From: a virus
Lineage: Duplodnaviria; Caudoviricetes
IMG/VR virus record: IMGVR_UViG_3300033067_002286
Location: 1-38,809 of that record
DNA length: 38,809 nt
Strand: one strand, 5' to 3'
Part shown: in pieces, positions 4,198 to 32,068 of the stretch
Numbering within the stretch: position 1 is the stretch's first letter
Layout: each line of letters begins with the position of its first letter
Made by a program: the position numbers and the translations under genes
The notes under the pieces: model-generated
Databases searched by the model: none
Seen by the model: the letters and a program-made list of their open reading frames with translations, nothing else
Told to the model about the DNA's origin: nothing

Positions 4198-4635
4198 ATG
4201 GCAAACACCACAAGCACCACAAGTCCCGAAGTAAAGGCTCCTAAGCTGGCTTTCGAGCCGATGAAGTCCACTCACAAAGATCACCAGCCGACAGAGGACG
4301 GCGCGTTCTTGGTTCTACGCAACGTCGAATCACCGAACCCGTATATCAAGAAGGGCGATTCCAAATACCTCCGAACCGGCGTCAAGCTCGTAGTCCCAGA
4401 AGGTTACCTGTGTTTCATCGCCGATCGGCGCGTTCATGGCAGCAGCTTTATGCTGTATCACGTGCAGTTCTTGACGCCTGGCACCAGTGGCGAGGTGTCT
4501 ATCCTTTGCGGCGCGGGGCACATCGCCGATCGCAACGTCCGCATGGGAGAAGAGATTGGCGTTGCGTGGCTCGTAAAGACTGACGGCGCAATGAAGCGCC
4601 CGGAACCGAAGACAGAGAAGGACGAAAGCAAATGA
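4198..4635 (+). CDS. trimeric dUTPase-fold protein with degenerate catalytic motifs
   Basis: RTGVKLVVPEGY..I..R and GEV.I...V..GEEIG follow the dUTPase scaffold; RSG, GVIDxDY, RIAQ and motif 5 are absent. Confidence 0.6.
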   Translation: MANTTSTTSPEVKAPKLAFEPMKSTHKDHQPTEDGAFLVLRNVESPNPYIKKGDSKYLRTGVKLVVPEGYLCFIADRRVHGSSFMLYHVQFLTPGTSGEVSILCGAGHIADRNVRMGEEIGVAWLVKTDGAMKRPEPKTEKDESK

Positions 4636-4853
4636 ACATTCGTCGCGAGTTCACCGTCCACATGCTCAACGAGGCCGGCAAACAGAAAGCTCGCCAGATA
4701 GCCGAGACTCTGACCGAAGCGCTCGACAAGCTGGAGCAAGTCTGCGGCACTGATGGCCGCGAAATGGCGCTGGTGCGCACCAAGTTCGAAGAGCTCAGCT
4801 TTTTTGCCAAAAAGGCGATGGCTGTGCACTCCGAGAATCAGGAGCCCGCGTGA
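4632..4853 (+). CDS. Acb2/Tad1-like helical-hairpin protein (candidate cyclic-nucleotide sponge)
   Basis: 73 aa; FTVH..N...AR.I...L......GREMALVRTKFEE..FFAKKAMA resembles the Acb2-like hairpin pattern. Confidence 0.65.
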   Translation: MNIRREFTVHMLNEAGKQKARQIAETLTEALDKLEQVCGTDGREMALVRTKFEELSFFAKKAMAVHSENQEPA

Positions 4854-7078: not shown

Positions 7079-7096
7079 CGGTGTTATTCTGTGCTT
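7079..7096 (+). promoter_or_regulatory. extended -10 leaderless promoter
   Basis: CGGTGT-TATTCT then 6 nt then ATG 7097; same CGGTGY context as the other promoters. Confidence 0.55.
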
Positions 7097-8200
7097 ATGA
7101 GAGAAACACCGCTCGCGCTACTCCTTCTCCCCTACATTGTTTGCTCTTTCAGCTACGCGTTCCTGTGCGGCGTCATAGGACGCACGTATGACCCCCTATC
7201 GGCGTTTTCTGTATACGCCGTCGGTTGTTTAGTAAGCTTCATCGGCTCCGCGCTGTGGTATCGACCGAAGCGCCTTTGGCCGCCCACTCGCGATGAAAGT
7301 CTCGCCGCTGTTGCCAGTACTTTGATTCTCACCAGCTCCACGCTGTCGCTCCTTCTTCCTCAGTCATTGCTCGCCGTTGTTACTTCCAAATCTGGAGCGC
7401 TGCTTATCCCATCAGCGCGTCACATTCGGCTCGTACGCCGAATACCGCTGCAGATGTTGCCGGCGTATATTGTCCGTCGGCTGTCGTTGCCTCTTTTGGC
7501 CATCCTTGCGGTTGTGCTCTCGGCCTGGCGCAAGCCCTTAGTGCTTATCGCTGTGCCGTTCTGTCTGGCTTGCGTATATGTGACCGGGTACGCGTTGAAG
7601 CTCAAGTCTGTAAAGATGGCCAAAATAACTCTACAGCCGCGGACGAAGAATGAATTCGTCGTAGCGGAACAGCTTGTCGTCGCCGTTGTTACCCTCGCCA
7701 TCGCTGCACTATTCGACCAATACCGCCGACTGGTGCCTGGTAGCGGTCATGCCGCCACACTTGCCGACTGGCGCTTATGGGCTGTTGCCGCAGCCAGCTA
7801 CGGCGGCGGATTCATTGGTACCCAGCTTGTGCTGCACTCGACCCCGCAGACGATAGTTTTTCCCGCCTACCGCGCTGCATCGCTTCTCTGCGCGCTCGGA
7901 GCTTCGGCCGCTCGTGGAGAACTACACTGGAAGCGCGCGTACTGGTCCGACTGGAGCGCGCTGGCGGTCGCACTAGTTGTCGTTCTGTGGGCTTCCGGCG
8001 CGTTTTCCTTTACACGGAAGCGTTTTGCGGTATACAGTAGCTACTTCAATACCCATGCGGTCACTCAAACGCTCCGGAATGCAAAGGAATGGCTTTCTGT
8101 GGCATGGGACAATTCCATGAACGCGGAGGCACGGCGTCGTGCCGCAGTTAATGCCGCTTTGTCGCGTTGGTTTGTAGACAATTTCACCGGAGAACGGTAA
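7097..8200 (+). CDS. polytopic membrane protein (about 9-10 hydrophobic segments; DMT/EamA-like topology)
   Basis: Alternating hydrophobic stretches in two halves; 3 nt upstream of purB. Confidence 0.55.
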   Translation: MRETPLALLLLPYIVCSFSYAFLCGVIGRTYDPLSAFSVYAVGCLVSFIGSALWYRPKRLWPPTRDESLAAVASTLILTSSTLSLLLPQSLLAVVTSKSGALLIPSARHIRLVRRIPLQMLPAYIVRRLSLPLLAILAVVLSAWRKPLVLIAVPFCLACVYVTGYALKLKSVKMAKITLQPRTKNEFVVAEQLVVAVVTLAIAALFDQYRRLVPGSGHAATLADWRLWAVAAASYGGGFIGTQLVLHSTPQTIVFPAYRAASLLCALGASAARGELHWKRAYWSDWSALAVALVVVLWASGAFSFTRKRFAVYSSYFNTHAVTQTLRNAKEWLSVAWDNSMNAEARRRAAVNAALSRWFVDNFTGER

Positions 8201-8203
8201 AAT

Positions 8204-9544
8204 ATGATACCTCGTTACACTCGACCTGAGATGTCCGCGCTGTGGACCGATGAACGGCGCTATAACTTGTGGCTTGAAATCGAGTTGGCAGCGCATGAAG
8301 CGCTGGAGGCAACACCCAATAGCCCGATACCACAAGGCGCAACGGCGAAGCTGCGCGAGTCTGTTACCGAATCACAAAAGGTCTATGACTGCTTGTGCCA
8401 TGGCGCAAAGTCCCGCATCGACATGTACGAGCGTGAGACTCAACACGAGTTCGTTGCTTTTCTTCGAACTTGCGAAGAACGATACGTATGCCCGTTTCTG
8501 CACTATGGGCTTACATCCTCTGACGTACAAGACACGGCGTTTTCCTTACTGCTCCGTGACGCTACTGCTTTAATCCTTACTGGTGTACGGGTCGAGTTAT
8601 TCCCTGCGCTCCGAGCGCAAGCGGAAGCCCATCGAAATACTGTATGCATCGGCCGTACGCATGGACAGCATGCAGAGCCTACAAGTCTTGGGCTGTTGTT
8701 TCTCGGCGCGTATGAAGAGATCAAACGCGCACAGGTTCGAGTCTGGGACGCATTCAACCAACTCACCGGTAAACTGTCTGGTGCAGTCGGCGTTTACGGT
8801 GCTGGATTTCCACCAGAGACCGAAGCAGCAGCCTTAAAAGCGCTTGGACTCAAGCCAGAGTTGGTCGGAACTCAGATAGTCCCGCGTGACAGGCATGCAG
8901 CACTATTTCAAGCGCTCGCGCTGCTAGCAGCAGCTATCGAGCGGTTGTGTCTGAATATTCGGCACCTGTCGCGCAGTGAAGTAGGCGAGCTGGCCGAGGG
9001 CTTTGCGGAGGGCCAAAAAGGAAGTTCAGCAATGCCCCATAAGCGCAATCCCATCAGCGCAGAAAACTTGTGTGGCTTAGCGCGGCTTGTGCGCGGATAC
9101 GCGGATACTTCGCTGGAGAACGTCGCGCTGTGGCATGAACGTGATATTAGTCATAGCTCGGTTGAACGCGTGATAGCACCGGACATTACAGCGCTATGCG
9201 ATTATATGGTTCATCGTTGCGCAAAGCTTGTACGCGGTTTGATAGTGAATGTCGAGCGGTGCAAGCATAACCTAGAGATGGGCGATTGGCGCTGGGCCTC
9301 AGAGCGCGTCATGCTTGCACTTGTTCGTAGTGGTCTAACTCGAAGCGTAGCGCATGAGCTGGTGCAACGAACTACGGAGTTGCGCGGGTTTACATTTAAA
9401 CGACATTGTGTGTACGGAGAGATCTACGACCGACTAGGCGACCACTTGCTGAAATGCTTTGACCTCACCGATGTGTTGCGCCACATTCCAGCTATTTATG
9501 AGCGCGTATTCGGCTGCGCGATTGAGAATTCCGCTACGCAGTAA
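8204..9544 (+). CDS. purB: adenylosuccinate lyase
   Basis: MIPRY, HYGLTSSD, GRTHG, GSSAMPHKRNP (fumarate-lyase signature) and WHERDISHSSVER. Confidence 0.96.
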   Translation: MIPRYTRPEMSALWTDERRYNLWLEIELAAHEALEATPNSPIPQGATAKLRESVTESQKVYDCLCHGAKSRIDMYERETQHEFVAFLRTCEERYVCPFLHYGLTSSDVQDTAFSLLLRDATALILTGVRVELFPALRAQAEAHRNTVCIGRTHGQHAEPTSLGLLFLGAYEEIKRAQVRVWDAFNQLTGKLSGAVGVYGAGFPPETEAAALKALGLKPELVGTQIVPRDRHAALFQALALLAAAIERLCLNIRHLSRSEVGELAEGFAEGQKGSSAMPHKRNPISAENLCGLARLVRGYADTSLENVALWHERDISHSSVERVIAPDITALCDYMVHRCAKLVRGLIVNVERCKHNLEMGDWRWASERVMLALVRSGLTRSVAHELVQRTTELRGFTFKRHCVYGEIYDRLGDHLLKCFDLTDVLRHIPAIYERVFGCAIENSATQ

Positions 9545-9654: not shown

Positions 9655-10074
9655 ATGACCCAATCGATCGTCAAAAAGTTCGCACTCGTTAACTCGGCTG
9701 GCCTGTTTATGGGCGGCACTCCTACCTATCCGGTATGGGGCAATATTGAAAACGCTGGCCTGTACCACAAATACGTAGGCGCTAAAGCTGCACTTCGAAT
9801 GCTTAACAGCGATCACAAGGCTACTATTCAGGAGCTCACGGTCGAGTACACTTGTGAAACTATAGAAAGCGGCACAGCGCCTATTCCCGATACCGCTGCT
9901 CAACAGATGTCTGTCATGTGTAAACGTGCGTATGCTGCGGAGGACAAATTAGCTAAGCTACAAGCCGAACTAGCCGCAGCTGTTGCCAGAGCTAATGCTG
10001 CCGAGGCAAAACTCGCTTCGATGTGCATTTCCGCCCCTGGCAATGAGCGTTTCCAGCTGCTAGAGCTTGACTAA
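9655..10074 (+). CDS. hypothetical protein with coiled coil and C-terminal RFQLLELD
   Basis: ORF with AGGT just upstream; heptad region EDKLAKLQAELAAA. Confidence 0.55.
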   Translation: MTQSIVKKFALVNSAGLFMGGTPTYPVWGNIENAGLYHKYVGAKAALRMLNSDHKATIQELTVEYTCETIESGTAPIPDTAAQQMSVMCKRAYAAEDKLAKLQAELAAAVARANAAEAKLASMCISAPGNERFQLLELD

Positions 10075-10582
10075 CCGCCGTCTGTTGAGTAGCTCGCCAC
10101 ACTTCAACGCCGAACTCGCCTAGTGTCTGCTCGATAAGCCTGTCAATAAGCTCTGCACCGCGGCGCGATTCCCAGCGCCCGCGCGTATTATAGCTTCCAC
10201 CGCGCTTAAGCAAGATGAACACAGCGCGGTGTCCATCAGCGCGCAATTGTTTGTAATAGCCCCACACTGCCTGATACACAGCGTCACGCGTTGCTTGTGG
10301 CGCATACAGGTCTACGAAGGGAACGCTCACAAGTACCGGCCTATCGGTGACAATGTAGCGTACTTTGCCAAGCAGCAGACTCTCTTCTTTTATTTGTTTG
10401 CCACAGATGTACTGCTCATCATACGCAGACACTGCGCGGCCTTCATGTGCCCAATGTTTTATGCATTCTCTGGCCATCTCTGCCGATTCGCCGCGGCACA
10501 TAAGCTCCGCCGTTGTCCGCAGCGCCGCTACGGTTTTGCCTGTATGCGGGCCACCAATGAATCCAATAATAGTGCTCTTCAT
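9992..10582 (-). CDS. P-loop NTPase/nucleotide kinase (AAA_28, NadR-kinase-like)
   Basis: GGPHTGKT Walker A; E.IK, IVTDRP and Y...GR.E motifs. Confidence 0.75.
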   Translation of the reverse strand: MKSTIIGFIGGPHTGKTVAALRTTAELMCRGESAEMARECIKHWAHEGRAVSAYDEQYICGKQIKEESLLLGKVRYIVTDRPVLVSVPFVDLYAPQATRDAVYQAVWGYYKQLRADGHRAVFILLKRGGSYNTRGRWESRRGAELIDRLIEQTLGEFGVEVWRATQQTAVSQALAAGNAHCQGRKCTSKRVLPRQH

Positions 10583-10793: not shown

Positions 10794-11198
10794 ATGACCT
10801 CGTGGCTGCACCTTCAAACCAATGCTCCGGACTTCTCAACGCCGATCACCTCATATGGCTGGCCTACAGCCGTCAGAGCGCCGGATCTCACCGAGCGACA
10901 GCGCGAGTATCTAGACGAGCTTGAAATTGAGGTTGAGTTCGGCCACAACTACGGCACTATTGGAAACTCGAAGTGCTATACTGCGCACCTGCGATTCACG
11001 GACTTGCTCCCCACACAGGCGCATATTGATCCAGTATCGCTGGCGCGCCTCGATGAAGCAGAGGACTTGCCGTACATTATCGTGCTGTTGTCGAATGGGA
11101 ACCACTACATCCATGACGGTCATCATCGAGCTACGCGCGCCATGTTGCGCAACGAGTTGATTGATGCCGTAGTTGTCAACCTGGAGATGATACGATGA
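10794..11198 (+). CDS. ParB/sulfiredoxin-like N-terminal domain protein
   Basis: LLPTQ...P.IIV...G.HYIHDGHHR motif; start set by the leaderless promoter. Confidence 0.7.
   Translation: MTSWLHLQTNAPDFSTPITSYGWPTAVRAPDLTERQREYLDELEIEVEFGHNYGTIGNSKCYTAHLRFTDLLPTQAHIDPVSLARLDEAEDLPYIIVLLSNGNHYIHDGHHRATRAMLRNELIDAVVVNLEMIR
10994..11192 (+). repeat. 199-bp perfect direct repeat, copy 1
   Basis: ATTCACGGACTTGCTCCCC...CTGGAGATGATA, identical by eye to 12101-12299. Confidence 0.95.
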
Positions 11199-11794: not shown

Positions 11795-12136
11795 GTGGCC
11801 GTCGAAGTCCGAGACGTGGCGCTTGCGCACTACTCCGCCTCGTCGGTGCTCGTGCGCTTCCCGAACGGCGAGAAGGTCTGGCTGCCGCTGAGCCAGGTCA
11901 ACCAAGTCCCCGAGGCGTGGAGCATCCCGGACAGCCTAGTGTCCCGCCGCGGCAAGCACCTCCTGATCACCGACTGGATCGCCAAGCAGAAGGGCTTCAA
12001 GGTCACGCCGCGCGAGCTGGACATCGATCCGGAACGCGCGGCGGAGAAGCCAGCCGCGCCGGCGCAGACCGCTAGGGCTGAGACGGCCGACGCGTCTGCA
12101 ATTCACGGACTTGCTCCCCACACAGGCGCATATTGA
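11795..12136 (+). CDS. hypothetical protein (small beta-barrel-like; 3' end runs into repeat copy 2)
   Basis: SVLVRF..GEKVWLPLSQV...ITDWIAKQKG; markedly G/C-ending codons. Confidence 0.65.
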   Translation: MAVEVRDVALAHYSASSVLVRFPNGEKVWLPLSQVNQVPEAWSIPDSLVSRRGKHLLITDWIAKQKGFKVTPRELDIDPERAAEKPAAPAQTARAETADASAIHGLAPHTGAY

Positions 12137-12299
12137 TCCAGTATCGCTGGCGCGCCTCGATGAAGCAGAGGACTTGCCGTACATTATCGTGCTGTTGTCG
12201 AATGGGAACCACTACATCCATGACGGTCATCATCGAGCTACGCGCGCCATGTTGCGCAACGAGTTGATTGATGCCGTAGTTGTCAACCTGGAGATGATA
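12101..12299 (+). repeat. 199-bp perfect direct repeat, copy 2
   Basis: Identical to 10994-11192, offset 1107 bp. Confidence 0.95.
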
Positions 12300-22316: not shown

Positions 22317-22916
22317 ATGGAAAAGAAACATCAGGGCTACCACGGAGCTTGGAACGATAACAACGCGCGTTCCGAGCGAGTGGCCGATGACTTGTACCCG
22401 ACGCCAGCTGAAGCGACGCAATGCTTGCTACGACGCGTGAAATTCAACGGCGCTATTTGGGAGTGCGCGGCTGGCTTGGGTCACATCAGCTGGGAACTCA
22501 AGCAAGCTGGTTACGAGTACATAAGCACAGATCTGTGCGCGGCGCAATACAAACACGGCGAAACGCTTGATTTTCTGCAGGCAGACAAAGCGCTTGCACC
22601 AAATATCGTAACCAATCCGCCGTACAAGCTGCTACGCAAGTTCATTCGTAAAGCGCTTACGCTGCCCGGCATTGATACTGTAGCGTTCTTCATTCCGTAT
22701 CCGGCTATCGCGTATGTCGGTATTCACAAGCTATTTGAAGAACTCGGCCACCCAACGCTTATTCTTGCTATGGTGCCGAACTTCACTATCTGGATGGGTG
22801 CGGAGCGCGGCTGGCAACAGTCATTCTTTAAGCACTGTTGGCTTGTGTGGGATCGTAGCGAACCGAAGCGTTCTAGTAGTTTATTTGAGCTGCGTGATTG
22901 GCGTGTAGTAAAATAG
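22317..22916 (+). CDS. phage DNA amino-methyltransferase (m6A/m4C type)
   Basis: DLYPTP, WECAAGLGHI (SAM-binding) and IVTNPPY catalytic motif. Confidence 0.85.
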   Translation: MEKKHQGYHGAWNDNNARSERVADDLYPTPAEATQCLLRRVKFNGAIWECAAGLGHISWELKQAGYEYISTDLCAAQYKHGETLDFLQADKALAPNIVTNPPYKLLRKFIRKALTLPGIDTVAFFIPYPAIAYVGIHKLFEELGHPTLILAMVPNFTIWMGAERGWQQSFFKHCWLVWDRSEPKRSSSLFELRDWRVVK

Positions 22917-23317: not shown

Positions 23318-23781
23318 ACAAGCGCCGTGACATACTTCGCATAAGCGACCGAATAGAAGTTACAAACCCGATCGTTGTTGTACGCGTGGGCTACCCCAAA
23401 TGCCACGCGGACTATGTAGAAGAGGTCAAAATAAAGCACAAAGCAGCTGTAGAGGCCCTATTTCGCACGCCACGAATGCAGAAGCGTGCTTACGTCAACT
23501 TAGCTTATGAAGCACTTGGTGCTGCAGGCTTTGGCGGTATTGAACGAACTGTTCATGTTCGAGACATGCCAGAGCTACAAGGCTACCAAGCGACTGTTCA
23601 AAGTGCTAGAACAGTTGTTACCGGCAAGTATTATCCTTCGAGCACGTATCAGCATTACGACGGTGACTACGATTATGAACCTGGTGGTTTATCAGATTGC
23701 GTGTACATTCGGTTGGTTTCAGTCATTTACGACGGGCACACCGTAGAGTTGCTAGCGTCCAACTGTCGTCGAGTGCCTTGA
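23314..23781 (+). CDS. hypothetical phage protein
   Basis: ATGA overlap; VVRVGYP and YDYEPGGL motifs. Confidence 0.65.
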   Translation: MNKRRDILRISDRIEVTNPIVVVRVGYPKCHADYVEEVKIKHKAAVEALFRTPRMQKRAYVNLAYEALGAAGFGGIERTVHVRDMPELQGYQATVQSARTVVTGKYYPSSTYQHYDGDYDYEPGGLSDCVYIRLVSVIYDGHTVELLASNCRRVP

Positions 23782-26145
23782 ATGGGTCATCAGCTTAGTT
23801 TTCTATCATCGCTGAGCCCCGATGAGCCGCTGCTATCATATGTAGTACTGCGCAGTGACGAGCGCTGGAGCGCTGCTCTTCAAGAGCTAGACACAGTCGG
23901 CTGGGTATCGCTGGATACCGAGTTCTGGCAAGACTCAGATTTGCTGCGCGCTGCCAAGCTGTCTGGACGCGATCTGCCGAAACCACCAGATTGGGACCCA
24001 TGGAGCTGTCGTCTAAGATTGCTTCAAATAGGTCTGCCGTCCGGACTGGTCATTGTCGCCGACTTCGGCCTTGAAAAGCTTCCTATCAACGCGCGCTGGG
24101 ATGAATCGACGCCGAATGCGGACTTGCTCGCTATTCTACAGCGCGTGCTCTGCAGTTACGAAGTGCCGGTATTTGGTCAAGCGCTGGGTACTGAAGCGCT
24201 CATACTGCGGCGGCATTTCGGGCTCAGCATTCGACGGCCACGCGATACGATGCTTGCGTCTCAAGTCATCTGGGCCGGCGTCGGTAGCAAAGAATGGGTG
24301 TGGACTGACCACGGCCGCGTAAAGCGCGATCGGATGCGTCACACTTTGCAGGCTATTGGCGCGCGTGTCGGTATCGAGTTCGACAAAACCGAGCAAAGCA
24401 GCGACTGGAGCTCACCGAAGCTAAGCAATAAACAAATAAACTACGCCGCAAAGGATGTACACCGCGACACACTAGTTGAAACATGGTCACGCTTGGCGAA
24501 GCTGGCCAAAAAAGACGGCGTATGGGAATCGGTCCTTATCGAATGTGACGCAGCGCCGGCATTCTGGGAGATAGAATGGCGCGGCATGTCGTTCGATCAA
24601 GCCGCAACGCAAAAGCTCGCCGATGACTATGGCCGTGTTGCTGATCAGTGTTTTGCTCAGCTCGCGTCAGTATTACCGCCGGGCACAATACTCGAAGGCC
24701 CAGGCAGTGCTGCAAGTCTTCCTTTGGCCCTCACCAAATATATAAACCCAGACGGCGATGTGACTTGGTGGCGCAAAGGTGCGGAAGTTGCAGCACTGTC
24801 GTCTATGACTACGAATCAAGCGTGGGCAAAGGGCTATTCGGAAGAGCGCGTCTGCTTCTATCGCTGGGAACAGACGATACAGAAACGCAAGACTGTACGT
24901 GAGGGTTGGCTACTCACTCCGGAAGAGGCTGAGCAACAGCGCTTCAAGTTAGTTCCGCAGACTGGCGAGGCTGAGCTATCGCCCTTCGACACCGATCCTG
25001 CAGTCGTGGCGCTGCTTGAAGCGCGTTCAGCGCGCAGTGTTGAAGGAGTTCTGCGCAAGCGCATCAAGAACTCATGGCCGGACCCAGAAATGCCCGCGCG
25101 CGTAGCTGCTCGCTGCCGTTATTGGCAGATAAGCGGCGGCGAGGATGACGCAGGCGCTGGTATGGGGCGCTCCAGCAGTAGCAAACCCTTTAACGCGCAG
25201 AATCTGACGGCATGGCCGCTTGGCGAGAAGCGCCACAAAGAACTCAAGCTTCCGAATGCGCGCAGTACAGCCCGGCCACCAGTCGGCCGCGGTATGGGTG
25301 TAGGAGACTTTTCTCAAGCGCACCTGCGATTCGCTACTGAGATGTCGCAAGATGCTGGCATGTTGGAGGACTTCAATGCCGGACGTGATGCGCATATCCG
25401 CCTTGCCTGCGAAATAGCAAAAGCTCAAGGCGTCGAAGCGGATTTCTACGAGTGGTGCCGCATTTATCAGAGCGGCGACAAAGCGCATCCGGTATTCGGT
25501 ACTATAAAGGAGAAACGCCAGCCAGCCAAAGTAGGTAACTATACATGCGTATGCCTCGGCGGTGTTGCAACTATGGCTATGTCTGCAGCGACAGCGGTTG
25601 AGCCCATACACCTACCGGACGAGATCTGGGAACTGACACGCAAGGCTTGGCGCGAGACGAACCACGAGCTGTACGCGTTTATTAAGGGCCAAGTCAAGAA
25701 AGCCGATCGCAGCAATCACGAATTTGGCGAATACGGCGTTTACGGCGAAGTGTGGAACTGTACTCACAATCGCCGGTTGTTCTTACTCAAGGAATGGAAC
25801 GTCCCGCAGTGGGAAGACGCCGTCGGGCGCTGGTCTGTTCGTGGCACTGACACCAGCGCCGCTATGTGGCAAATGTCAGAGGCTAATGCACTCAAGATCG
25901 CTTTGGCCCTCTTTCTGAAGGACTGTGACGATCATCCTGAATGGGAAGCGTTTCCCATCAACGCCGTACACGATGAGATAGACTTCGAATTCAAGTGGAA
26001 TATTCAGTATGAGGCCGAAGTAGCGTGGTCGGTTTATGATGCTATGGGCGAAGGTATGCGCCGCGCTGGTATTAAGTCCTTGCCAGTGCGTGCGCCGGAT
26101 GATACGCCGCAGAAACTCTTAGTGCAGAGTTGGGCAGACAAATAA
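23782..26145 (+). CDS. family A DNA polymerase with 3'-5' exonuclease, divergent active site
   Basis: Exo motifs LDTE, DTMLA and YAAKD; pol motifs GRSSS..NAQN, DFSQAHLR, RQPAKVGNY and VHDEI. Confidence 0.92.
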   Translation: MGHQLSFLSSLSPDEPLLSYVVLRSDERWSAALQELDTVGWVSLDTEFWQDSDLLRAAKLSGRDLPKPPDWDPWSCRLRLLQIGLPSGLVIVADFGLEKLPINARWDESTPNADLLAILQRVLCSYEVPVFGQALGTEALILRRHFGLSIRRPRDTMLASQVIWAGVGSKEWVWTDHGRVKRDRMRHTLQAIGARVGIEFDKTEQSSDWSSPKLSNKQINYAAKDVHRDTLVETWSRLAKLAKKDGVWESVLIECDAAPAFWEIEWRGMSFDQAATQKLADDYGRVADQCFAQLASVLPPGTILEGPGSAASLPLALTKYINPDGDVTWWRKGAEVAALSSMTTNQAWAKGYSEERVCFYRWEQTIQKRKTVREGWLLTPEEAEQQRFKLVPQTGEAELSPFDTDPAVVALLEARSARSVEGVLRKRIKNSWPDPEMPARVAARCRYWQISGGEDDAGAGMGRSSSSKPFNAQNLTAWPLGEKRHKELKLPNARSTARPPVGRGMGVGDFSQAHLRFATEMSQDAGMLEDFNAGRDAHIRLACEIAKAQGVEADFYEWCRIYQSGDKAHPVFGTIKEKRQPAKVGNYTCVCLGGVATMAMSAATAVEPIHLPDEIWELTRKAWRETNHELYAFIKGQVKKADRSNHEFGEYGVYGEVWNCTHNRRLFLLKEWNVPQWEDAVGRWSVRGTDTSAAMWQMSEANALKIALALFLKDCDDHPEWEAFPINAVHDEIDFEFKWNIQYEAEVAWSVYDAMGEGMRRAGIKSLPVRAPDDTPQKLLVQSWADK

Positions 26146-26146
26146 G

Positions 26147-26175
26147 TTGACATCTGTACTCGGCGGTGTTATGCT
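26147..26175 (+). promoter_or_regulatory. sigma70-type promoter
   Basis: TTGACA-17-TATGCT with CGGTGT context; AGGAG RBS and ATG at 26201. Confidence 0.75.
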
Positions 26176-26200
26176 GGGTTGTCAATTAATAGGAGCCGTC

Positions 26201-27901
26201 ATGACCCAGCCGGTATCGTCCAAAGGAATCTATTCTGACAAAGCCAAGCGTCACTACCTCACTGCCGATCTGCCCGCAGAGCTCCAGCAGCTCTGGACAG
26301 ATGCGCGCCACTGGCGCAGCGTCAAGGGCAATGAAAAAGTGTGGTGGCATAGCCGAATGCCCGGCGACGCTAGTTCACCGCTGCTGAACTTCAAATACCC
26401 AATTGGAGCAAAGCTGTCCGACGACAGAGCCAAGTTCAGCGCTTCTAAAAACACTATGCTGGCTTGCTGGCAGCGCCTTAAGGCCAAGACCAAGCCGGCT
26501 GTCATTCCTCCGGCTGCCACTGCGCCGCTGCCTGCTAATACGACTGTGAGTCAGGGGCAGCCCGTCACTTCTCCCGCGCCGACACCGGCGCTTGACGCGG
26601 CGCGCAAGCACAATCTAATTGGTCCGCGTGTGAGCAGTACTGAGTATATGTGTCTGTGTCCCTGGCGTGCAGAGCATAAGACCGGTGGACAGCAGAACGG
26701 CATCCACGATCAAAGCACACAGGTCGGACCGAATAGCTTTCACTGCCGGCATGGCTCGTGCCAGGGCAAGCGCTACGCGGCTGAGTTCCTGGCGGCGCTG
26801 AATCCACCGGAAGTGCCGAAGGTAAGCGCGGCGACGCAGGTGATTTTAGTCATCGACAACAGCATCAGCATGAGGGAAAGCAACAAGCACGCTGCAGCGC
26901 GCAAGCAGATTCAGCTTATCTGCGATCAGCTGCGCAACAATATGCCGCAGTGGGCAGTTAAAGTGTTGTTCTTTGGCCGTAGCGTATCATATGCGTTTAC
27001 CGGCGAAGCGAAGTTGCTGCCACTGCTTCATGAACGTTATCACCCGAATGAGGGCGCAACGCGGCTGTACGATGCGGTGGGGACGGCAGCCGTGGCGGCG
27101 CTTGGTGTCAGCATCCCGTCGCTGATCTATTTGATCACTGATGGCGAACCGGCCGGATACGTAATGACCGCTATTGCGTCCCATCGTTCCATCGCTGCGG
27201 CGCGGGTCAAAGAGGCGCTTGACTCCAAGCGTGTCACAATGATTTGTGTTGGTCCGCCGACTGCGACGGCGTTCTTCGAGTCCTGTGGTATTCCCGGCGG
27301 CGTAGATGGCTGCATTCGAAGCTGGGACGGCTACGACGCAAAGGATCTGGACAAGATCACCGGACAGGTGAGCGAAGGGCTCAAGTCCTACGCTGCAGCG
27401 CGCGAAGCTGGCGAGACGCAGATAAAGAAGTTCTTCGTTGACGGCCGAAAGCTGGAAGCGCGCTTGCATGAGCTCATCGACATCACGGCGCTGTGTAAGG
27501 TGCTGCGCGTTGACCGCGAATGCGTACTGCAGCCATTCGTTGAAGATAGCGGCCACAAGTTCGTCCCCGGCGCGAACTTCTACCCACTCACCAAGAAAGA
27601 AACGCTGCGGCCGAACCGCGCAATTCTGGTACGGCCGAAGCTTGGGCATCCCATGCCTTCATTAGTGGTCAACAACATTCCCACACGACGTATTTTCTCT
27701 GGTCCGAATGTGCGCGAAGTGCTCGGACTGCCGACAGACCGCGAAGTGACAGTTGAGCCCGGTGATATGGGCAACTTGGAGCTGTTCCTTGAGAGCTCCA
27801 GCCATAACCGCCTGCTGGTGCGCGCCACTGATCTTATCGTTCGTCTCGACGTGCAGCCGCAAGCTCACACCTGGGCCAAGCCGCAGCCGCAGTCGAACTA
27901 G
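26201..27901 (+). CDS. multidomain protein: N-terminal domain, primase-type Zn finger, vWA domain, C-terminal domain
   Basis: CPWRAEH...FHCRHGSC; MIDAS motifs VIDNSISM, TRLYDAVG and ITDGE; C-terminal FYPLTKKE..LGLP..SSSHNR. Confidence 0.75.
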   Translation: MTQPVSSKGIYSDKAKRHYLTADLPAELQQLWTDARHWRSVKGNEKVWWHSRMPGDASSPLLNFKYPIGAKLSDDRAKFSASKNTMLACWQRLKAKTKPAVIPPAATAPLPANTTVSQGQPVTSPAPTPALDAARKHNLIGPRVSSTEYMCLCPWRAEHKTGGQQNGIHDQSTQVGPNSFHCRHGSCQGKRYAAEFLAALNPPEVPKVSAATQVILVIDNSISMRESNKHAAARKQIQLICDQLRNNMPQWAVKVLFFGRSVSYAFTGEAKLLPLLHERYHPNEGATRLYDAVGTAAVAALGVSIPSLIYLITDGEPAGYVMTAIASHRSIAAARVKEALDSKRVTMICVGPPTATAFFESCGIPGGVDGCIRSWDGYDAKDLDKITGQVSEGLKSYAAAREAGETQIKKFFVDGRKLEARLHELIDITALCKVLRVDRECVLQPFVEDSGHKFVPGANFYPLTKKETLRPNRAILVRPKLGHPMPSLVVNNIPTRRIFSGPNVREVLGLPTDREVTVEPGDMGNLELFLESSSHNRLLVRATDLIVRLDVQPQAHTWAKPQPQSN

Positions 27902-27928
27902 ACACCGCCTGAGCGTCTCTGTTACGAT
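27899..27928 (+). promoter_or_regulatory. putative promoter of the purZ operon
   Basis: TAGACA-18-TACGAT with TGn. Confidence 0.45.
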
Positions 27929-27975
27929 CTTCTTATCCCTTCCGTTCTCTGCAACACCTTTCAAAGGCAGCTTCA

Positions 27976-29667
27976 ATGCGAAATCCCTTGATTGTCGTTC
28001 TGTCTGGCCCTATCGCGGTCGGCAAGTCCACTCTGTCTGCAGCGCTTGTTGAGCGCTTCGGTTTTTACTGCGTCAAAACTCGTTCGCTGCTCAAGCAGCT
28101 CGCAAACGATCGCGGCTCTGATCAGTTGACGCGCGCTGAGCTCCAGCACGGCGGCGCTGACCTAGATAAGCGCACCGACGGCGCATGGATTGCGGACGCG
28201 CTGAATAAGTCTGGTATGTGCAACGCAGTGCCAATTATCGTCGATTCGGTTCGTACTGCTGAGCAGATCGCCCACATTCGTCGCATGAACGGTAGTGTTA
28301 CCGGCGCTGTAAATGTAAAACACGTGCACATCACTGCGTCGCATGCTATTTTGGAAGAGCGCTTTATCATACGTCGTCGTGAGGCGGTTCAGCACGAAAA
28401 GCCTTGTTTAGATGGAACGGGAGGTGGAAGTAACCCGCTGACATTTGATCGGGCCATGATTGGTGAGCCTATTGATGAGCTCGATGGCACGTTGGAGCGC
28501 ATCGCCGACGTTTGCATAGACACTACGCGTCTGCAGCCAGAAGATATCGCCGTGCGCGTCGCCGCTGCGCTCGGGCTATACAATAACCACGATCGGCTGG
28601 TAGACGTGCTGGTGGGCGGCCAGTGGGGCTCCGAGGGCAAAGGACAAGTCAGCGGCTATCTTGCGCCGGAATATGACGTACTCGTGCGCGTCGGCGGACC
28701 AAACGCTGGTCACAAGGTCTACGAGCTGCCTAAGCCGTACACTTTCTATCATCTGCCCAGCGGAACGCGATGCAATCGCCGCGCACAGATCGTACTTGGC
28801 CCCGGCGCTGTGCTCGGACTGCCGAAGCTGATGGAGGAAATCTCTGACTGCGCGCTATCTGGCAGCGGTCGGCTGTTCATCGATCCTCAGGCTATGGTGA
28901 TCGACGCAGCGGACGTGAATATGGAAAACCACGTCGGCAGTGCTGTGGCGGCCATCGGCAGCACAGGTCAAGGTGTTGGTGCGGCGACAGCGCGCAAGGC
29001 GCTGCGCAGCATGGCCGCGTCTGAGTTCGGTTGTCCGGTGCAGCTCGCTCGCGACGTTCCGGGGCTAAAAGAATTTATTCGGCCGACTCTCGAAGTACTC
29101 GATCGCGCTTTCGCGGCTGGTAAGCGCGTGTTCCTTGAAGGCACGCAGGGTACTTCGCTGTCGCTTCATCACGGCGCGTATCCTTACGTCACTTCGCGCG
29201 ATACTACGGTGTCTGGCACGCTGTCCGACGCCGGTATTTCTCCACTGCGTGTGCGCAAGTCGATCATGGTGTGCCGCAGCTATCCCATCCGTGTAAAGTC
29301 CGTTGAAAACACCAGCGGGCCAATGGGACAGGAGATCGACTTCCAGGAAGTTGCGCGTCGCTCGGGTTTTGACGGCGACACGCTGGTACAGCTGGAGAAA
29401 ACCACAACGACCAAGCGCAATCGCCGCGTTGCTGAGTTCAATTGGGCGGAGTTCCGCCGCAGCGTGTCGCTCAACGGTCCGACGGATATTGCGCTGACCT
29501 TTGCCGACTATTATGGCAAGGATAACCAGCAGGCGCGGCGTTATGAGCAGCTCAATGCCGAAGCGCAGCGCCAGATTGAGGCGATGGAGCAAGTCAGCGG
29601 TGCGCCGGTGTCGCTCATTGCTACGCGCTTTCATTTCCGCTCGATCGTCGATCGGCGTCACTGGTAA
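27976..29667 (+). CDS. purZ: P-loop NMP-kinase domain fused to PurZ/PurZ0-like adenylosuccinate synthetase
   Basis: N-terminal SGPIAVGKST and IIVDSVR. C-terminal GGQWGSEGKG (Ser for PurA Asp13), NAGH, IGSTGQGVG, EGTQG..LSL, YPYVTSRD, YPIRV, TTTTKRNRR and TFAD. Confidence 0.85.
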   Translation: MRNPLIVVLSGPIAVGKSTLSAALVERFGFYCVKTRSLLKQLANDRGSDQLTRAELQHGGADLDKRTDGAWIADALNKSGMCNAVPIIVDSVRTAEQIAHIRRMNGSVTGAVNVKHVHITASHAILEERFIIRRREAVQHEKPCLDGTGGGSNPLTFDRAMIGEPIDELDGTLERIADVCIDTTRLQPEDIAVRVAAALGLYNNHDRLVDVLVGGQWGSEGKGQVSGYLAPEYDVLVRVGGPNAGHKVYELPKPYTFYHLPSGTRCNRRAQIVLGPGAVLGLPKLMEEISDCALSGSGRLFIDPQAMVIDAADVNMENHVGSAVAAIGSTGQGVGAATARKALRSMAASEFGCPVQLARDVPGLKEFIRPTLEVLDRAFAAGKRVFLEGTQGTSLSLHHGAYPYVTSRDTTVSGTLSDAGISPLRVRKSIMVCRSYPIRVKSVENTSGPMGQEIDFQEVARRSGFDGDTLVQLEKTTTTKRNRRVAEFNWAEFRRSVSLNGPTDIALTFADYYGKDNQQARRYEQLNAEAQRQIEAMEQVSGAPVSLIATRFHFRSIVDRRHW

Positions 29668-29767
29668 CAACGGCTTTGCACGGGAGACAGGCGCTGCGGT
29701 AGGACAGGCTGATATAGCTGGCGGACTGCCGCAGCGTCTCCCGTGTAAAGAGAAATGGCAAGAAACT

Positions 29768-30196
29768 ATGTTGAACGGATGGGCAAAGAAGATTGCAGCA
29801 GTGCTTGATATTCCCGAACATATCCGTGCGGAGATTATGGGCGTAGACTGTCCAGCACATTTAACGATCGGTGCAATGCAGCGCGCCTTGAACGGCGAAA
29901 ATGTTGCGCCTTGGTTGGGACCAACTTGGGCCAAACTATATGCATCAGCAATCGCCAAACTTACAGTTCATAACTGGCGCATTGAAAGCAGTCTGGCACA
30001 TGAGACGCGCGAGAGCTGCAACGGGCATTGCCAGGCAACTTGTCGGCGCGATAAGCGTACAGGACTGCTGATTGCGTTCGACGCGGAAGGTCAAAAGCCG
30101 CGCCAAGATGCTTACTGGTTTAATACAACTCGTTCGGAACTGCAAGGAGAGTCTGGTACAGTTCAAGACTTAACGCCGCTTGGTGAAATATGGTAG
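29768..30196 (+). CDS. hypothetical protein
   Basis: ORF between purZ and the kinase genes; overlaps the next start. Confidence 0.55.
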   Translation: MLNGWAKKIAAVLDIPEHIRAEIMGVDCPAHLTIGAMQRALNGENVAPWLGPTWAKLYASAIAKLTVHNWRIESSLAHETRESCNGHCQATCRRDKRTGLLIAFDAEGQKPRQDAYWFNTTRSELQGESGTVQDLTPLGEIW

Positions 30197-30798
30197 CACA
30201 GCCATGTATTTATGTCTGCGGCGCAGAGGGAACAGGTAAAACCGATTGGACAGGACGCATTGCGCGCAATTACAAGCTGCTAATGCTTCCAGAGACTGCG
30301 CGCATTGAGCTTGATTGCCGTGGGGGTTCCTTTGGCCCTCTACTGAGCAATCCGACGGCTATGAATGATTATCAACGCGCGGTGTTTGACCGACAGATCG
30401 CGCTAGAGCTCGCAACGACGCCAGCCTATGTCGCCGACGGGCATTGTTTGGAAAACCTCGCTTATGCCTCTGAGAACGCGCAATGCGTAGCCGACTTGTA
30501 TCAACAATTCGTGCGCGACTTGGACAGTTACCAGCGTGAATTCGAAGTGCTTACACGCCTGCGCAACGGTGTTGTGTTTTTCCTTCGACCGCACCCAAGC
30601 ATGAACGCGCAAGATGGAATCCGTATTGGCGCGGACTACGTAGCCAAGCAGCGCATCGATGCAAAGCTTGAGCTGCTGATGCAGTTGTGGGGCGTTCAGT
30701 ATGTGTCTATAGAAACACCGAATGCAGCGCGGCGTGAAGAACTCATCGACTACGTACTTGCGGCGAAAGGATTTAAGAAATGCCCGTCCATATCCTAA
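30190..30798 (+). CDS. P-loop nucleotide kinase-like (AAA_28/NadR/Ttd14-like)
   Basis: GAEGTGKT, LPETAR, VADG and DGIR motifs. Confidence 0.75.
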   Translation: MVAQPCIYVCGAEGTGKTDWTGRIARNYKLLMLPETARIELDCRGGSFGPLLSNPTAMNDYQRAVFDRQIALELATTPAYVADGHCLENLAYASENAQCVADLYQQFVRDLDSYQREFEVLTRLRNGVVFFLRPHPSMNAQDGIRIGADYVAKQRIDAKLELLMQLWGVQYVSIETPNAARREELIDYVLAAKGFKKCPSIS

Positions 30799-31364
30799 CA
30801 GCGTCATGGAAAGGTTCGCTTACCTGGGCCGGCGAGCGTGAAGCGTGGCTCAAGCAGCACTTCGATCTGGACTACAACGATATCACGTTCAGCCATGCCA
30901 AACACAAGGTGCACGGCGACATCTTCATCGACGACAAGCCGAGTTCGCTTGAGCTATGGCAGGCGCGGCATCCAAACGGTGTAGCACTGTTGTGGAAGGA
31001 CGTGTGGAATAGGCCGCATCACAGTAACTGGCCCGGCGCTGACAACTGGCCACACATGATAGAAGAGATCACCTTTCAAGGATACCAGCGCACCAATCGA
31101 TTGAGTGAACTCGAAATTCTTCTTGACTGTGACGGTCCGCTGTCGGACTTCTTTGGCGCAGCTATGAGCTGGCTATACCGCGAGTATTTGGACTACGCCG
31201 CGATGAAATGGCAACCGCAGCCCGAGCATTGGGCGGTTCAAGATTCACTTCCGCCGGAGCGCGCAGCGGCGTTGAATGCGGCTTGTATGCAGCCAGGCTT
31301 TTGCGCTTCACTTGGACTTGTCGAAGGCGCACAAGCAGCAGTTAAATACCTAAGGAGTTTGTGA
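30780..31364 (+). CDS. 5'(3')-deoxyribonucleotidase (NT5C-type HAD), circularly permuted
   Basis: ILTAS, WLKQHF, K...GDIFIDD and WN come first; motif I LLDCDG and the cap (PGFCASL..VEGA) follow in the C-terminal half. Confidence 0.8.
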   Translation: MPVHILTASWKGSLTWAGEREAWLKQHFDLDYNDITFSHAKHKVHGDIFIDDKPSSLELWQARHPNGVALLWKDVWNRPHHSNWPGADNWPHMIEEITFQGYQRTNRLSELEILLDCDGPLSDFFGAAMSWLYREYLDYAAMKWQPQPEHWAVQDSLPPERAAALNAACMQPGFCASLGLVEGAQAAVKYLRSL

Positions 31365-32068
31365 TGTTGGCATACAACCCTAAGCGGCGGTGCACCGCGG
31401 ACGGTGTACCAATGAACCGACTTATCATTGGCATTGGCGGACTGAAGCGTAGCGGCAAGGATGAGCTGGCACGAGCGATCATCAGTCACGCACGACAGAA
31501 TGGCGTCATTCTGTGGAACATTGCTTTTGCTGACGCGCTCCGTGATACCGCCGCTGCGGCTTACGGCGTTCCGGTGAATGAGTTCAGCAGCGACCAGCTC
31601 AAAGATGAAGTACACCCGGCGTGGGGTATTACGCGACGGCAGATGCTTATCAATCTCGGCGTACCTGCAACGCTGCTTCCGCCAGCTGGTGCTGATCATT
31701 GGGTCCGCCGTTGGCAGCAAAGCCTTTCAGATCTTCCCATGAACACTAGCGGCGTTATCGCGGCGGACATTCGGCGCACGAATGAGGCCGCGGCGGTGCA
31801 CGACATGGGCGGCGTGAATATTCTGGTGCGGCGTCCAGGCATCACGTGGAACGGTCACATCACTGAGAAATTGTCTTGGCTTGCATCGACGGCGCGCGGC
31901 AGTTATAATTATGGAGATGCTGCATTGCATGAAATGGGCTCTGCCGGGCAACGATCAACCCGTCCGGTGTTTGACCTGGTTATCGATAATGATGGCAGCG
32001 TTTCAGACCTTCATGCAAAAGCATCGCAGTTGTACAAGGCGGTGCTTGATGTCAGGAGACACTGTTAA
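31361..32068 (+). CDS. deoxynucleoside monophosphate kinase (T4 gp1/T5 Dnk-like)
   Basis: IGIGGLKRSGKD, FADALR, T.RQML..LG, DIRRTNEA and DLVIDNDG. Confidence 0.88.
   Translation: MMLAYNPKRRCTADGVPMNRLIIGIGGLKRSGKDELARAIISHARQNGVILWNIAFADALRDTAAAAYGVPVNEFSSDQLKDEVHPAWGITRRQMLINLGVPATLLPPAGADHWVRRWQQSLSDLPMNTSGVIAADIRRTNEAAAVHDMGGVNILVRRPGITWNGHITEKLSWLASTARGSYNYGDAALHEMGSAGQRSTRPVFDLVIDNDGSVSDLHAKASQLYKAVLDVRRHC

Follow-up and report, generated by a model that had tools for sequence, protein, structure and literature searches.

Does a DNA polymerase that has lost the Glu steric gate and Tyr766, two features usually regarded as fixed in family A enzymes, belong to a phage with unusual DNA? This question is raised by a gene at positions 23782..26145 (+ strand) of a 38,809-nucleotide stretch of viral DNA (IMG/VR record IMGVR_UViG_3300033067_002286; the whole stretch is called the window below), which encodes a 787-residue family A polymerase and is followed by a gene for a PurZ-like protein. 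An earlier note, made from the sequence alone, had attributed the joint substitutions in the polymerase pocket to selection rather than decay and had proposed an independently evolved DpoZ-like enzyme or one accepting an altered sugar or base. We find that the polymerase belongs to a large clade to which most of these changes are ancestral, and that the residue at position 766 marks a subclade linked to the PurZ-like gene. The explanation that we favor, with a probability of about 0.5, is that a replicase with an inherited His gate serves a phage that makes the triphosphate of 2-aminodeoxyadenosine (dZTP) by way of a kinase–PurZ fusion, PurB, and nucleotide kinases, and that Z would be incorporated without strong selection by the polymerase.

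The polymerase pocket differs from that of E. coli Pol I

E. coli Pol I (NC_000913.3) served as the reference for aligning the window polymerase, and aligning by profile with the PolA of Aquifex and of the apicoplast reproduced the register. In motif A (25306..25329, +), the catalytic D509 (codon GAC at 25306) corresponds to D705 of Pol I, and H514 (CAC at 25321) occupies the steric-gate position, E710. Motif B, the O helix (25516..25557, +), retains R579 (R754) and K583 (K758) and has Y587 (TAT at 25540) for F762, C591 (TGC at 25552) for Y766, and L592 for G767, with the result that His514 and Cys591 stand where the Glu gate and Tyr766 would be expected. Motif 6 (25858..25872, +) has A693 (GCC at 25858) for N845 and Q697 for Q849, and motif C (25969..25977, +) is the His-Asp-Glu sequence H730-D731-E732, equivalent to H881-D882-E883. 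Alignment and codons bear out the pocket substitutions read in the earlier note (E710H, F762Y, Y766C, G767L, and N845A). The residues that it had listed as retained, namely the catalytic Asps, R754, K758, and Q849, are likewise all present, but Q849 is not a family constraint, as it is kept in just 11 of the 143 clusters of relatives with His710 described below. In the Klenow enzyme, E710, F762, and Y766 are sugar-selection residues (PMC13369328), and F762Y is a common variant among phages (bioRxiv 10.64898/2026.05.20.726624).

The residues needed for polymerase activity are all present (D509, D731, R579, K583, and R463, the Arg of the TGR motif), as are exonuclease residues D45, E47, Y221, and D225, with Glu138 at the position of D424. 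The protein matches Pfam PF01612 and PF00476, and an AlphaFold model (mean predicted local distance difference test [pLDDT] 87.8 and predicted template-modeling score 0.89, with pLDDT 90–95 over the three motifs) has its best fold matches in apicoplast and Aquifex PolA (Foldseek E 9e-23 to apicoplast PolA). Model and residues together describe a Klenow fold with a 3'-5' exonuclease domain, and the protein is likely to be a working replicase. All six pocket residues are kept in 6/6 near-identical 787-residue proteins from other records, each with 18–21 differences from the window protein; thus, the unusual residues are not an assembly error.

Most pocket changes are shared by a large clade

An exhaustive profile search of protein clusters formed at 50% identity was performed, and the best 150 matches were evaluated. 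Among these clusters, 143 have His710, one has Glu, and six do not cover the site. The His710 clusters have Asn766 in 141 cases, Cys in one, and no coverage of 766 in one, and they remain fixed at D705 (143/143), K758 (142), and D882 (141). That His710 is almost always accompanied by a small residue at 766, while the catalytic residues stay fixed, supports the view that selection rather than decay shaped the pocket. Glu710 and Tyr766 are in contact in Pol I, and the co-occurrence therefore fits a compensated pair of substitutions. A separate alignment of 120 sequences, which is redundant (57 His710 representatives at 90% identity), has 91 His, 24 Glu, and four gaps at position 710, plus one misaligned sequence, P0044, that was left out of the counts. 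His710 proteins in this alignment have Tyr762 in 87/89 cases, Asn766 in 78/89 (ten Cys and one Pro), Gly767 in 9/89, Ala or Ser at 845 in 84/85, and Gln849 in 19/85. When four of the 57 representatives shorter than 540 residues were left out, the remaining 53 rows formed a single clade (support 99; FastTree) that derives from Aquificae/apicoplast-like PolA; its members include the polymerase of Nodularia phage 2AV2, which is in culture, and some are encoded on the chromosomes of cyanobacteria. E710H, F762Y, G767X, and N845A/S are inherited, clade-wide traits, and most of the pocket changes are ancestral to the clade.

We then asked of the fetched loci what accompanies these polymerases. A His710 polymerase was seen in 54 loci, of which 49 have Asn766, three have another or an uncovered residue, and two have Cys766. 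No purA or purZ match lies beside the polymerase in any of the 49 Asn766 loci (24 of them at least 8 kb long) or in the three with another or uncovered residue; a purA/purZ-like match is present in both Cys766 loci. Whole-record searches with PF00709 gave no match in five viral records of relatives, two of them at least 90% complete, and neither purA/purZ nor purB was matched in the 139-kb genome of phage 2AV2. In three host assemblies, the PF00709 search returned only canonical PurA with Asp13. In 25 loci, several of which are near-copies, the polymerase is followed by an AAA_28 kinase gene with no purZ between them. The sister phage G001 (a 75-kb record; longest contig 78 kb) has an Asn766 polymerase (P0024) and the same gene order as the window, with which it shares capsid, helicase, Sak4, single-stranded DNA-binding protein (SSB), 2H, polymerase, AAA_28, deoxynucleoside monophosphate (dNMP) kinase, and tail genes; it has no purZ or purB match in a record that lacks ~3 kb beyond the polymerase. 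E710H, F762Y, G767X, and N845A/S are thus common in relatives with no PurZ-like gene, the result that the earlier note had named as one that would count against its proposal, and a reading of the full set of changes as an adaptive response to Z or an altered sugar is not supported. The PurZ-like gene downstream of the polymerase and purB upstream, neither of which the note cites, leave part of the proposal standing for Cys766, the only change that tracks the PurZ-like gene (2/2 loci).

In the literature searched, which left out most subscription journals, we found no description of the His710/Asn766 PolA clade or of the kinase–PurZ fusion; the phiDpoZ1 and phiDpoZ2 sequences (bioRxiv 10.1101/2025.10.22.683976) could bear on novelty. 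A natural His/Asn clade of at least 143 clusters would represent an alternative way to select the sugar and gives polymerase engineers new points of departure. Some His710/Asn766 polymerases (P0425, P0426, P0433, P0440, P0454, and similar proteins) are 1000–1700 residues long, probably through fusion to other replication domains or inteins within them. His710 polymerases in loci L033, L034, and L037 have changed exonuclease residues in the alignment (D424H, Y497W, and D501K).

Cys766 marks a subclade linked to a kinase–PurZ fusion

The Cys766 proteins form one branch (seven rows, support 100), in which Cys is invariant (7/7), compared to Asn in 17/17 sister proteins. Eighteen positions separate the subclade from these sisters, and 766 is the sole one among the catalytic-pocket positions that we tracked. 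Direct linkage of a Cys766 polymerase to a kinase–PurZ fusion was seen in the window and in loci L001 and L002, where the fusion gene starts ~550 bp after the polymerase, and is suggested for five more records by contigs of identical length (36350, 19444, 9759, 18334, and 17734 bases). Judged from these alignments and loci, the Asn-to-Cys change marks a subclade with a kinase-fused PurZ-like gene after the polymerase, and change and gene together count as one evolutionary event. The Cys766 subclade and the Asn766 sister phages are a pair matched by nature in which to study why a PolA would prefer Z, a matter left open by the DpoZ structure (PMC8599892).

Does position 766 track Z more widely? 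In the alignment, both DpoZ clades have Phe at 766, a change judged unlikely to explain Z selectivity in DpoZ (PMC8599892, PMC10201439). For the comparison we used PolAs of viral loci retrieved with the PurZ-like alignment; rows lacking Lys758 (L173–L175 and four fragments among the controls) were dropped, as were repeated motif strings. Near PurZ-like genes, 14 of 26 distinct PolAs have a residue other than Tyr at 766 (F 10, G 2, A 1, T 1) and 12 keep Tyr; control PolAs, drawn from 74 loci without a purA or purB match, keep Tyr in 18/18 cases. These counts ignore phylogeny, as most Phe rows are Wayne-like and the controls are related to one another. In phages that carry this kinase fusion beside unrelated PolAs, residue 766 is Ala (L154), Gly (L156 and L163), or Tyr (L164). 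Because the sets are not phylogenetically independent, the association between position 766 and Z is a hint and no more. The Gly766 enzymes (L156:12897-15884 and L163:13624-16584) also have Leu762, a uracil-DNA glycosylase fusion being evident for L156, and in these two phages the kinase–PurZ fusion sits between helicase and primase; the polymerases of L156, L163, and L154 are further DpoZ-like candidates.

The fusion and its partners resemble a Z-synthesis pathway

The PurZ-like gene (27976..29667, +) lies 1.8 kb downstream of the polymerase, inside the replication cluster, and encodes a P-loop kinase domain (Pfam AAA_17/18/33) fused to a PurZ-like adenylosuccinate synthetase (PF00709), an assignment based on Pfam, fold, and tree. 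The fusion has Ser219 at the position of PurA Asp13 (S14 in phiVC8 PurZ), and its P437, I438, T476, F509, and Y512 correspond to P233, I234, T262, F295, and Y298 of phiVC8 PurZ; S14, T262, P233, F295, and Y298 are among the differentially conserved PurZ residues (bioRxiv 2025.10.22.683976). The fusion also keeps Asp511, as do PurA and the PurZ0 of phage Wayne. This residue is the Asp of the PurA T-K-x-D motif. The Asp of this motif is linked to GTP use, and its retention suggests that the synthetase domain of the fusion uses GTP. The ATP and GTP preferences of PurZ enzymes are stated in two conflicting ways (PMC12884076). The synthetase domain would condense dGMP and aspartate to dSMP.

An adenylosuccinate lyase gene, purB (8204..9544, +), with its signature motifs present (TIGR00928, 364 bits; cut-off 326), lies upstream of the polymerase and has no counterpart that we could find in G001. 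Other PurZ-like phage loci also have purB homologs (L184, L185, L189, L193, and L196), and a PurB scan of viral contigs gave two marginal matches and no more. The contigs behind the PurB relative P0180 and the Asn766 polymerase P0011 measure 63866 and 63862 bases; if they belong to one phage, purB would also occur with Asn766. Directly upstream of purB, a hydrophobic protein without a family match (7091–8200), probably a multi-pass membrane protein, has a homolog in G001.

Nucleotide kinases are encoded nearby. An AAA_28 P-loop kinase gene (30190..30798, +), the usual downstream neighbor of the polymerase clade, is followed by a gene for a circularly permuted NT5C (HAD) 5'(3')-deoxyribonucleotidase (30780..31364, +; Pfam NT5C), residues 3–97 of which match the C-terminal half, and 113–193 the N-terminal half, of normal NT5C. 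Next comes a dNMP kinase gene (31361..32068, +; Pfam DNMK, phrog_139) that has a homolog in G001, and a second AAA_28 kinase gene (9992–10582, − strand) lies near purB. We rejected the AAA_28 and dNMP kinases as markers of Z because they are present in relatives without purZ.

Bacterial genes for kinase–PurZ proteins sit in defense-type islands. A DUF7002 gene came next in 4/4 plasmids viewed, and HD, macro, AbiE, or SIR2 genes lie near some of them. The order kinase–PurZ then DUF7002 was seen at L150:6992-9291, L151:6992-9285, L152:7001-9344, and L153:6992-9284, and also in L158, L159, and L160; IrrE/M78 or macro-domain genes lie upstream of kinase–PurZ in L158 and L159, and an HD (YfbR-like) gene is nearby in L151 and L153. 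The DUF7002 protein had no match among solved structures, which gave no confirmation that it is DarT-like. These islands may be an unstudied defense system that makes or senses Z nucleotides. The fusion would tie phage Z synthesis to this bacterial defense-island module.

Weighing the explanations

Taking polymerase and pathway together, the phage likely makes dZTP and its polymerase likely accepts it. In the scheme that we propose, His710 would assume the task of keeping out the 2'-OH, and room for it would be made by Asn or Cys where Tyr766 was. The synthetase domain would condense dGMP with aspartate, probably with GTP; dZMP would then be released by PurB and phosphorylated to dZDP, by the kinase of the fusion or by the dNMP kinase, and a host kinase would produce dZTP. 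The polymerase would place Z opposite T, as nonselective PolAs such as Klenow do (Klenow makes no distinction between A and Z; PMC8342488), and the DNA would be partly or fully Z-containing, depending on whether the missing part of the genome encodes a dATPase.

Several observations weigh against this scheme. The fusion lacks F12, W252, and S273 of PurZ (W217, F456, and E487 instead) and has nothing aligned at Y244, although Wayne PurZ0 likewise lacks S273 and Y244. It scores 203 bits against the 300-bit cut-off of the NCBIfam PurZ model NF038379, and a quick tree places it in a 35-row, largely bacterial kinase-fusion clade outside PurZ and PurZ0 (support 98), for no member of which the literature searched gives a tested substrate. 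Pfam scans of 110 of the 213 open reading frames (ORFs) and six-frame family searches found no DatZ, MazZ, DUF5664, DUF550, NDT, or intact dUTPase in the window, a record that probably lacks about half of the genome. The dATPase families were unmatched in three near-complete fusion phages (G011, G015, and G016), for which 88 of 128 ORFs of 80–450 residues were scanned and no positive control accompanied the searches for DUF5664 and DUF550. For comparison, dutZ occurs in all 98 PurZ0 genomes, and PurZ genomes mostly have DatZ (PMC12884076). NDT-like genes, of the family of DmtZ, are near the fusion in three other phages (L155, L161, and L162; weak to moderate matches).

The same observations bear on two other accounts of the PurZ-like gene. 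If the phage has ordinary ATGC DNA, the PurZ-like protein and PurB would adjust the nucleotide pool or act against a host defense, for example by converting dIMP to dAMP, and Cys766 would be drift. PurZ is able to use dIMP, and dITP is a bacterial immune signal. The nesting of the fusion among bacterial defense-island proteins with DUF7002, HD, macro, and AbiE neighbors, the failure to find Z accessory hydrolases, and the presence in the window of another anti-defense gene (Acb2/Tad1 family) and an NPPY-type DNA methylase all point this way. We nevertheless find ordinary DNA a doubtful explanation, as the fusion has Ser where PurA has Asp13 and also has Thr262, both reported determinants for the 2-amino group, the gene is placed after the polymerase in the replication cluster as purZ is in phage Wayne, and three other fusion phages have the NDT-like genes just mentioned. 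Alternatively, the enzyme could be a third, independently evolved DpoZ, in which Asn-to-Cys766, along with changes in the second shell (A472 and A728, for example), causes dZTP to be preferred and dATP rejected. Such a third origin of Z selectivity in PolA would have arisen as the phage captured kinase–PurZ from a bacterial defense-island system, and the polymerase rather than a dATPase would exclude adenine; with its own PurB, the phage would then have a nearly self-contained pathway from dGMP to dZDP. Cys766 is the lone diagnostic change among tracked pocket positions and coincides with the PurZ-like gene, both DpoZ clades alter 766 too (Tyr to Phe; PMC8599892, PMC10201439), the skew away from Tyr near PurZ-like genes (14/26 versus 0/18 controls) extends to the Ala and Gly enzymes of fusion phages L154, L156, and L163, and the lack of a detected dATPase would place selection on the polymerase. 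But L164 keeps Tyr, as do 12/26 of the set, whose members are not independent by descent; the two DpoZ papers doubt that 766 causes Z selectivity (PMC8599892, PMC10201439); Tyr766 was already gone in the ancestor; and a single event accompanied by 17 other diagnostic differences may reflect hitch-hiking. Both the enzyme's preference for dZTP and the third-origin history thus strike us as unlikely.

Two further accounts concern the polymerase itself. A His gate might admit ribonucleotides or other sugar-modified nucleotides and give phage DNA with an altered backbone. The change of all three Klenow sugar-selection residues (PMC13369328) and the AAA_28 kinase after the polymerase in 25 loci would agree with this account, which is very improbable given that His takes up more room than the Ala introduced into engineered enzymes to open the gate, that the clade includes a cultured, sequenced cyanophage and cyanobacterial chromosomal genes, that class II ribonucleotide reductase genes adjoin the polymerase in L060 and L141, and that no sugar-modifying enzyme was found among 144 neighbor proteins scanned. 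A decaying or inactive polymerase might be suspected from five normally conserved positions that differ from Pol I and from a Pfam PolA score of 36.8 bits; we assign this idea a negligible chance, in view of an ORF that is intact, catalytic and exonuclease residues that stay fixed in the 143 clusters, a confident PolA fold, and a replication-module setting with helicase, Sak4, and SSB. A replicase without strong selection, in a phage that likely makes dZTP, is the reading that we favor.

Phage genome, likely host, and rejected candidates

The window is a 38.8-kb piece of a tailed-phage genome with capsid protease, major capsid, tail, and lysis genes. Its record (G000) is linear, with a CheckV completeness of 32%, or about half if the full genome is near 78 kb as in G001. 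Pfam scans covered 110 of the 213 ORFs. Contigs of four runs account for most of 23700–31400; no listed piece takes in both the polymerase and the PurZ-like gene, and they are left out of the argument. Around the polymerase, the replication cluster includes a helicase, an annealing protein similar to Sak4, and a likely SSB, the last labeled by position and sequence rather than by a family match. Named closest relatives of PurB are mostly from Myxococcales, Polyangia, and Deltaproteobacteria, and those of the PurZ-like protein are from Sorangium, Chondromyces, and one Gemmatimonadaceae genome; because these relatives come mostly from such taxa, the host is likely to be a myxobacterium.

An NPPY-type amino-methyltransferase (DNA methylase) is encoded upstream of the polymerase (22317–22916). 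Its homologs in three further viral loci (L169, L170, and L179) lie near purZ-type genes, and the corresponding place in sister loci L009 and L010 is taken by a C5 methylase. Between the polymerase and the PurZ-like gene lies a gene for a VWA-domain protein (26147–27901), which is replaced in L001 and L002 by a gene of 115 codons. A hairpin protein of the Acb2/Tad1 family (4632–4853; Pfam 27.9 bits, cut-off 27) is likely to be a sponge against nucleotide-signal defenses, and PADLOC gave no relevant match in the window. A 204-bp direct duplication (10989–11192 and 12096–12299; 99.5% identical) is the 3' part of a small gene that looks ParB-like by eye and has homologs near the polymerase in other clade members.

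Two candidates for dATP removal were rejected. The ORF at 4198–4635, considered as DutZ, clusters with dUTPase-like proteins in Atlas (0.94), but catalytic motifs are absent by eye, and it has no Pfam match and no meaningful match to Wayne Dut. A degenerate gene like it occurs at the same place in G001 (E 0.007), which has no purZ, and on these grounds the ORF was rejected as Z-specific. This degenerate dUTPase-fold gene (also noted at L204:5905-6273) follows the capsid genes and is perhaps structural; G001 has a separate intact dUTPase as well. A weak DatZ tblastn match near 23462–23703 (E 0.048) was treated as chance.

Comparison with known systems

The best sequence, profile, and fold matches of the window polymerase are to Aquificae-like/apicoplast PolA (cd08639; cluster 8 of Czernecki et al., 2023, PMC10201439; PDB 8JRB and 9QSC), with which it shares the exonuclease-plus-polymerase layout and a DxE exonuclease motif. 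These enzymes keep E710, F762, Y766, G767, N845, and Q849, whereas the window clade has His, Tyr, Asn/Cys, a variable residue, Ala/Ser, and a variable residue, respectively. The PolA of Nodularia phage vB_NpeS-2AV2 (YP_009830368.1) has His710, Tyr762, and Ala845 like the window enzyme but Asn766, and the two are ~30% identical in the exonuclease part only. When a clade member from Stenomitos was compared to a phage collection, the 2AV2 group (nine records) were the sole cultured phages matched.

Like PurZ and PurZ0 (PDB 6FM1, 7ODX, and 7VF6), the fusion has a short archaeal-type fold with Ser14, Pro233, Ile234, Thr262, Phe295, and Tyr298, and it has Asp at 297 in common with Wayne PurZ0. Unlike them, it carries an N-terminal kinase domain of ~200 residues, has W, F, and E at 12, 252, and 273, and belongs to a clade that includes bacterial defense-island genes.

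DpoZ of vibriophage phiVC8 and of Arthrobacter phage Wayne is, like the window enzyme, a phage PolA with active exonuclease motifs and a nearby purZ-type gene. It also loses Tyr766, but to Phe rather than Cys, and phiVC8 DpoZ is also changed at N845 (G548). E710 is retained in DpoZ and its motif C reads HDS, whereas the window enzyme has His and HDE, and DpoZ phages carry DatZ/MazZ or DutZ/DmtZ, which were not found in the window. An approximately unbiased (AU) test on a 16-row quick tree, with the window enzyme, P0003, and both DpoZ forced into one clade, rejected the grouping (p-AU 1.2e-5). Thus, the window polymerase is a new variant within family A rather than a member of DpoZ, and in the Cys766 subclade it possibly works as DpoZ does.

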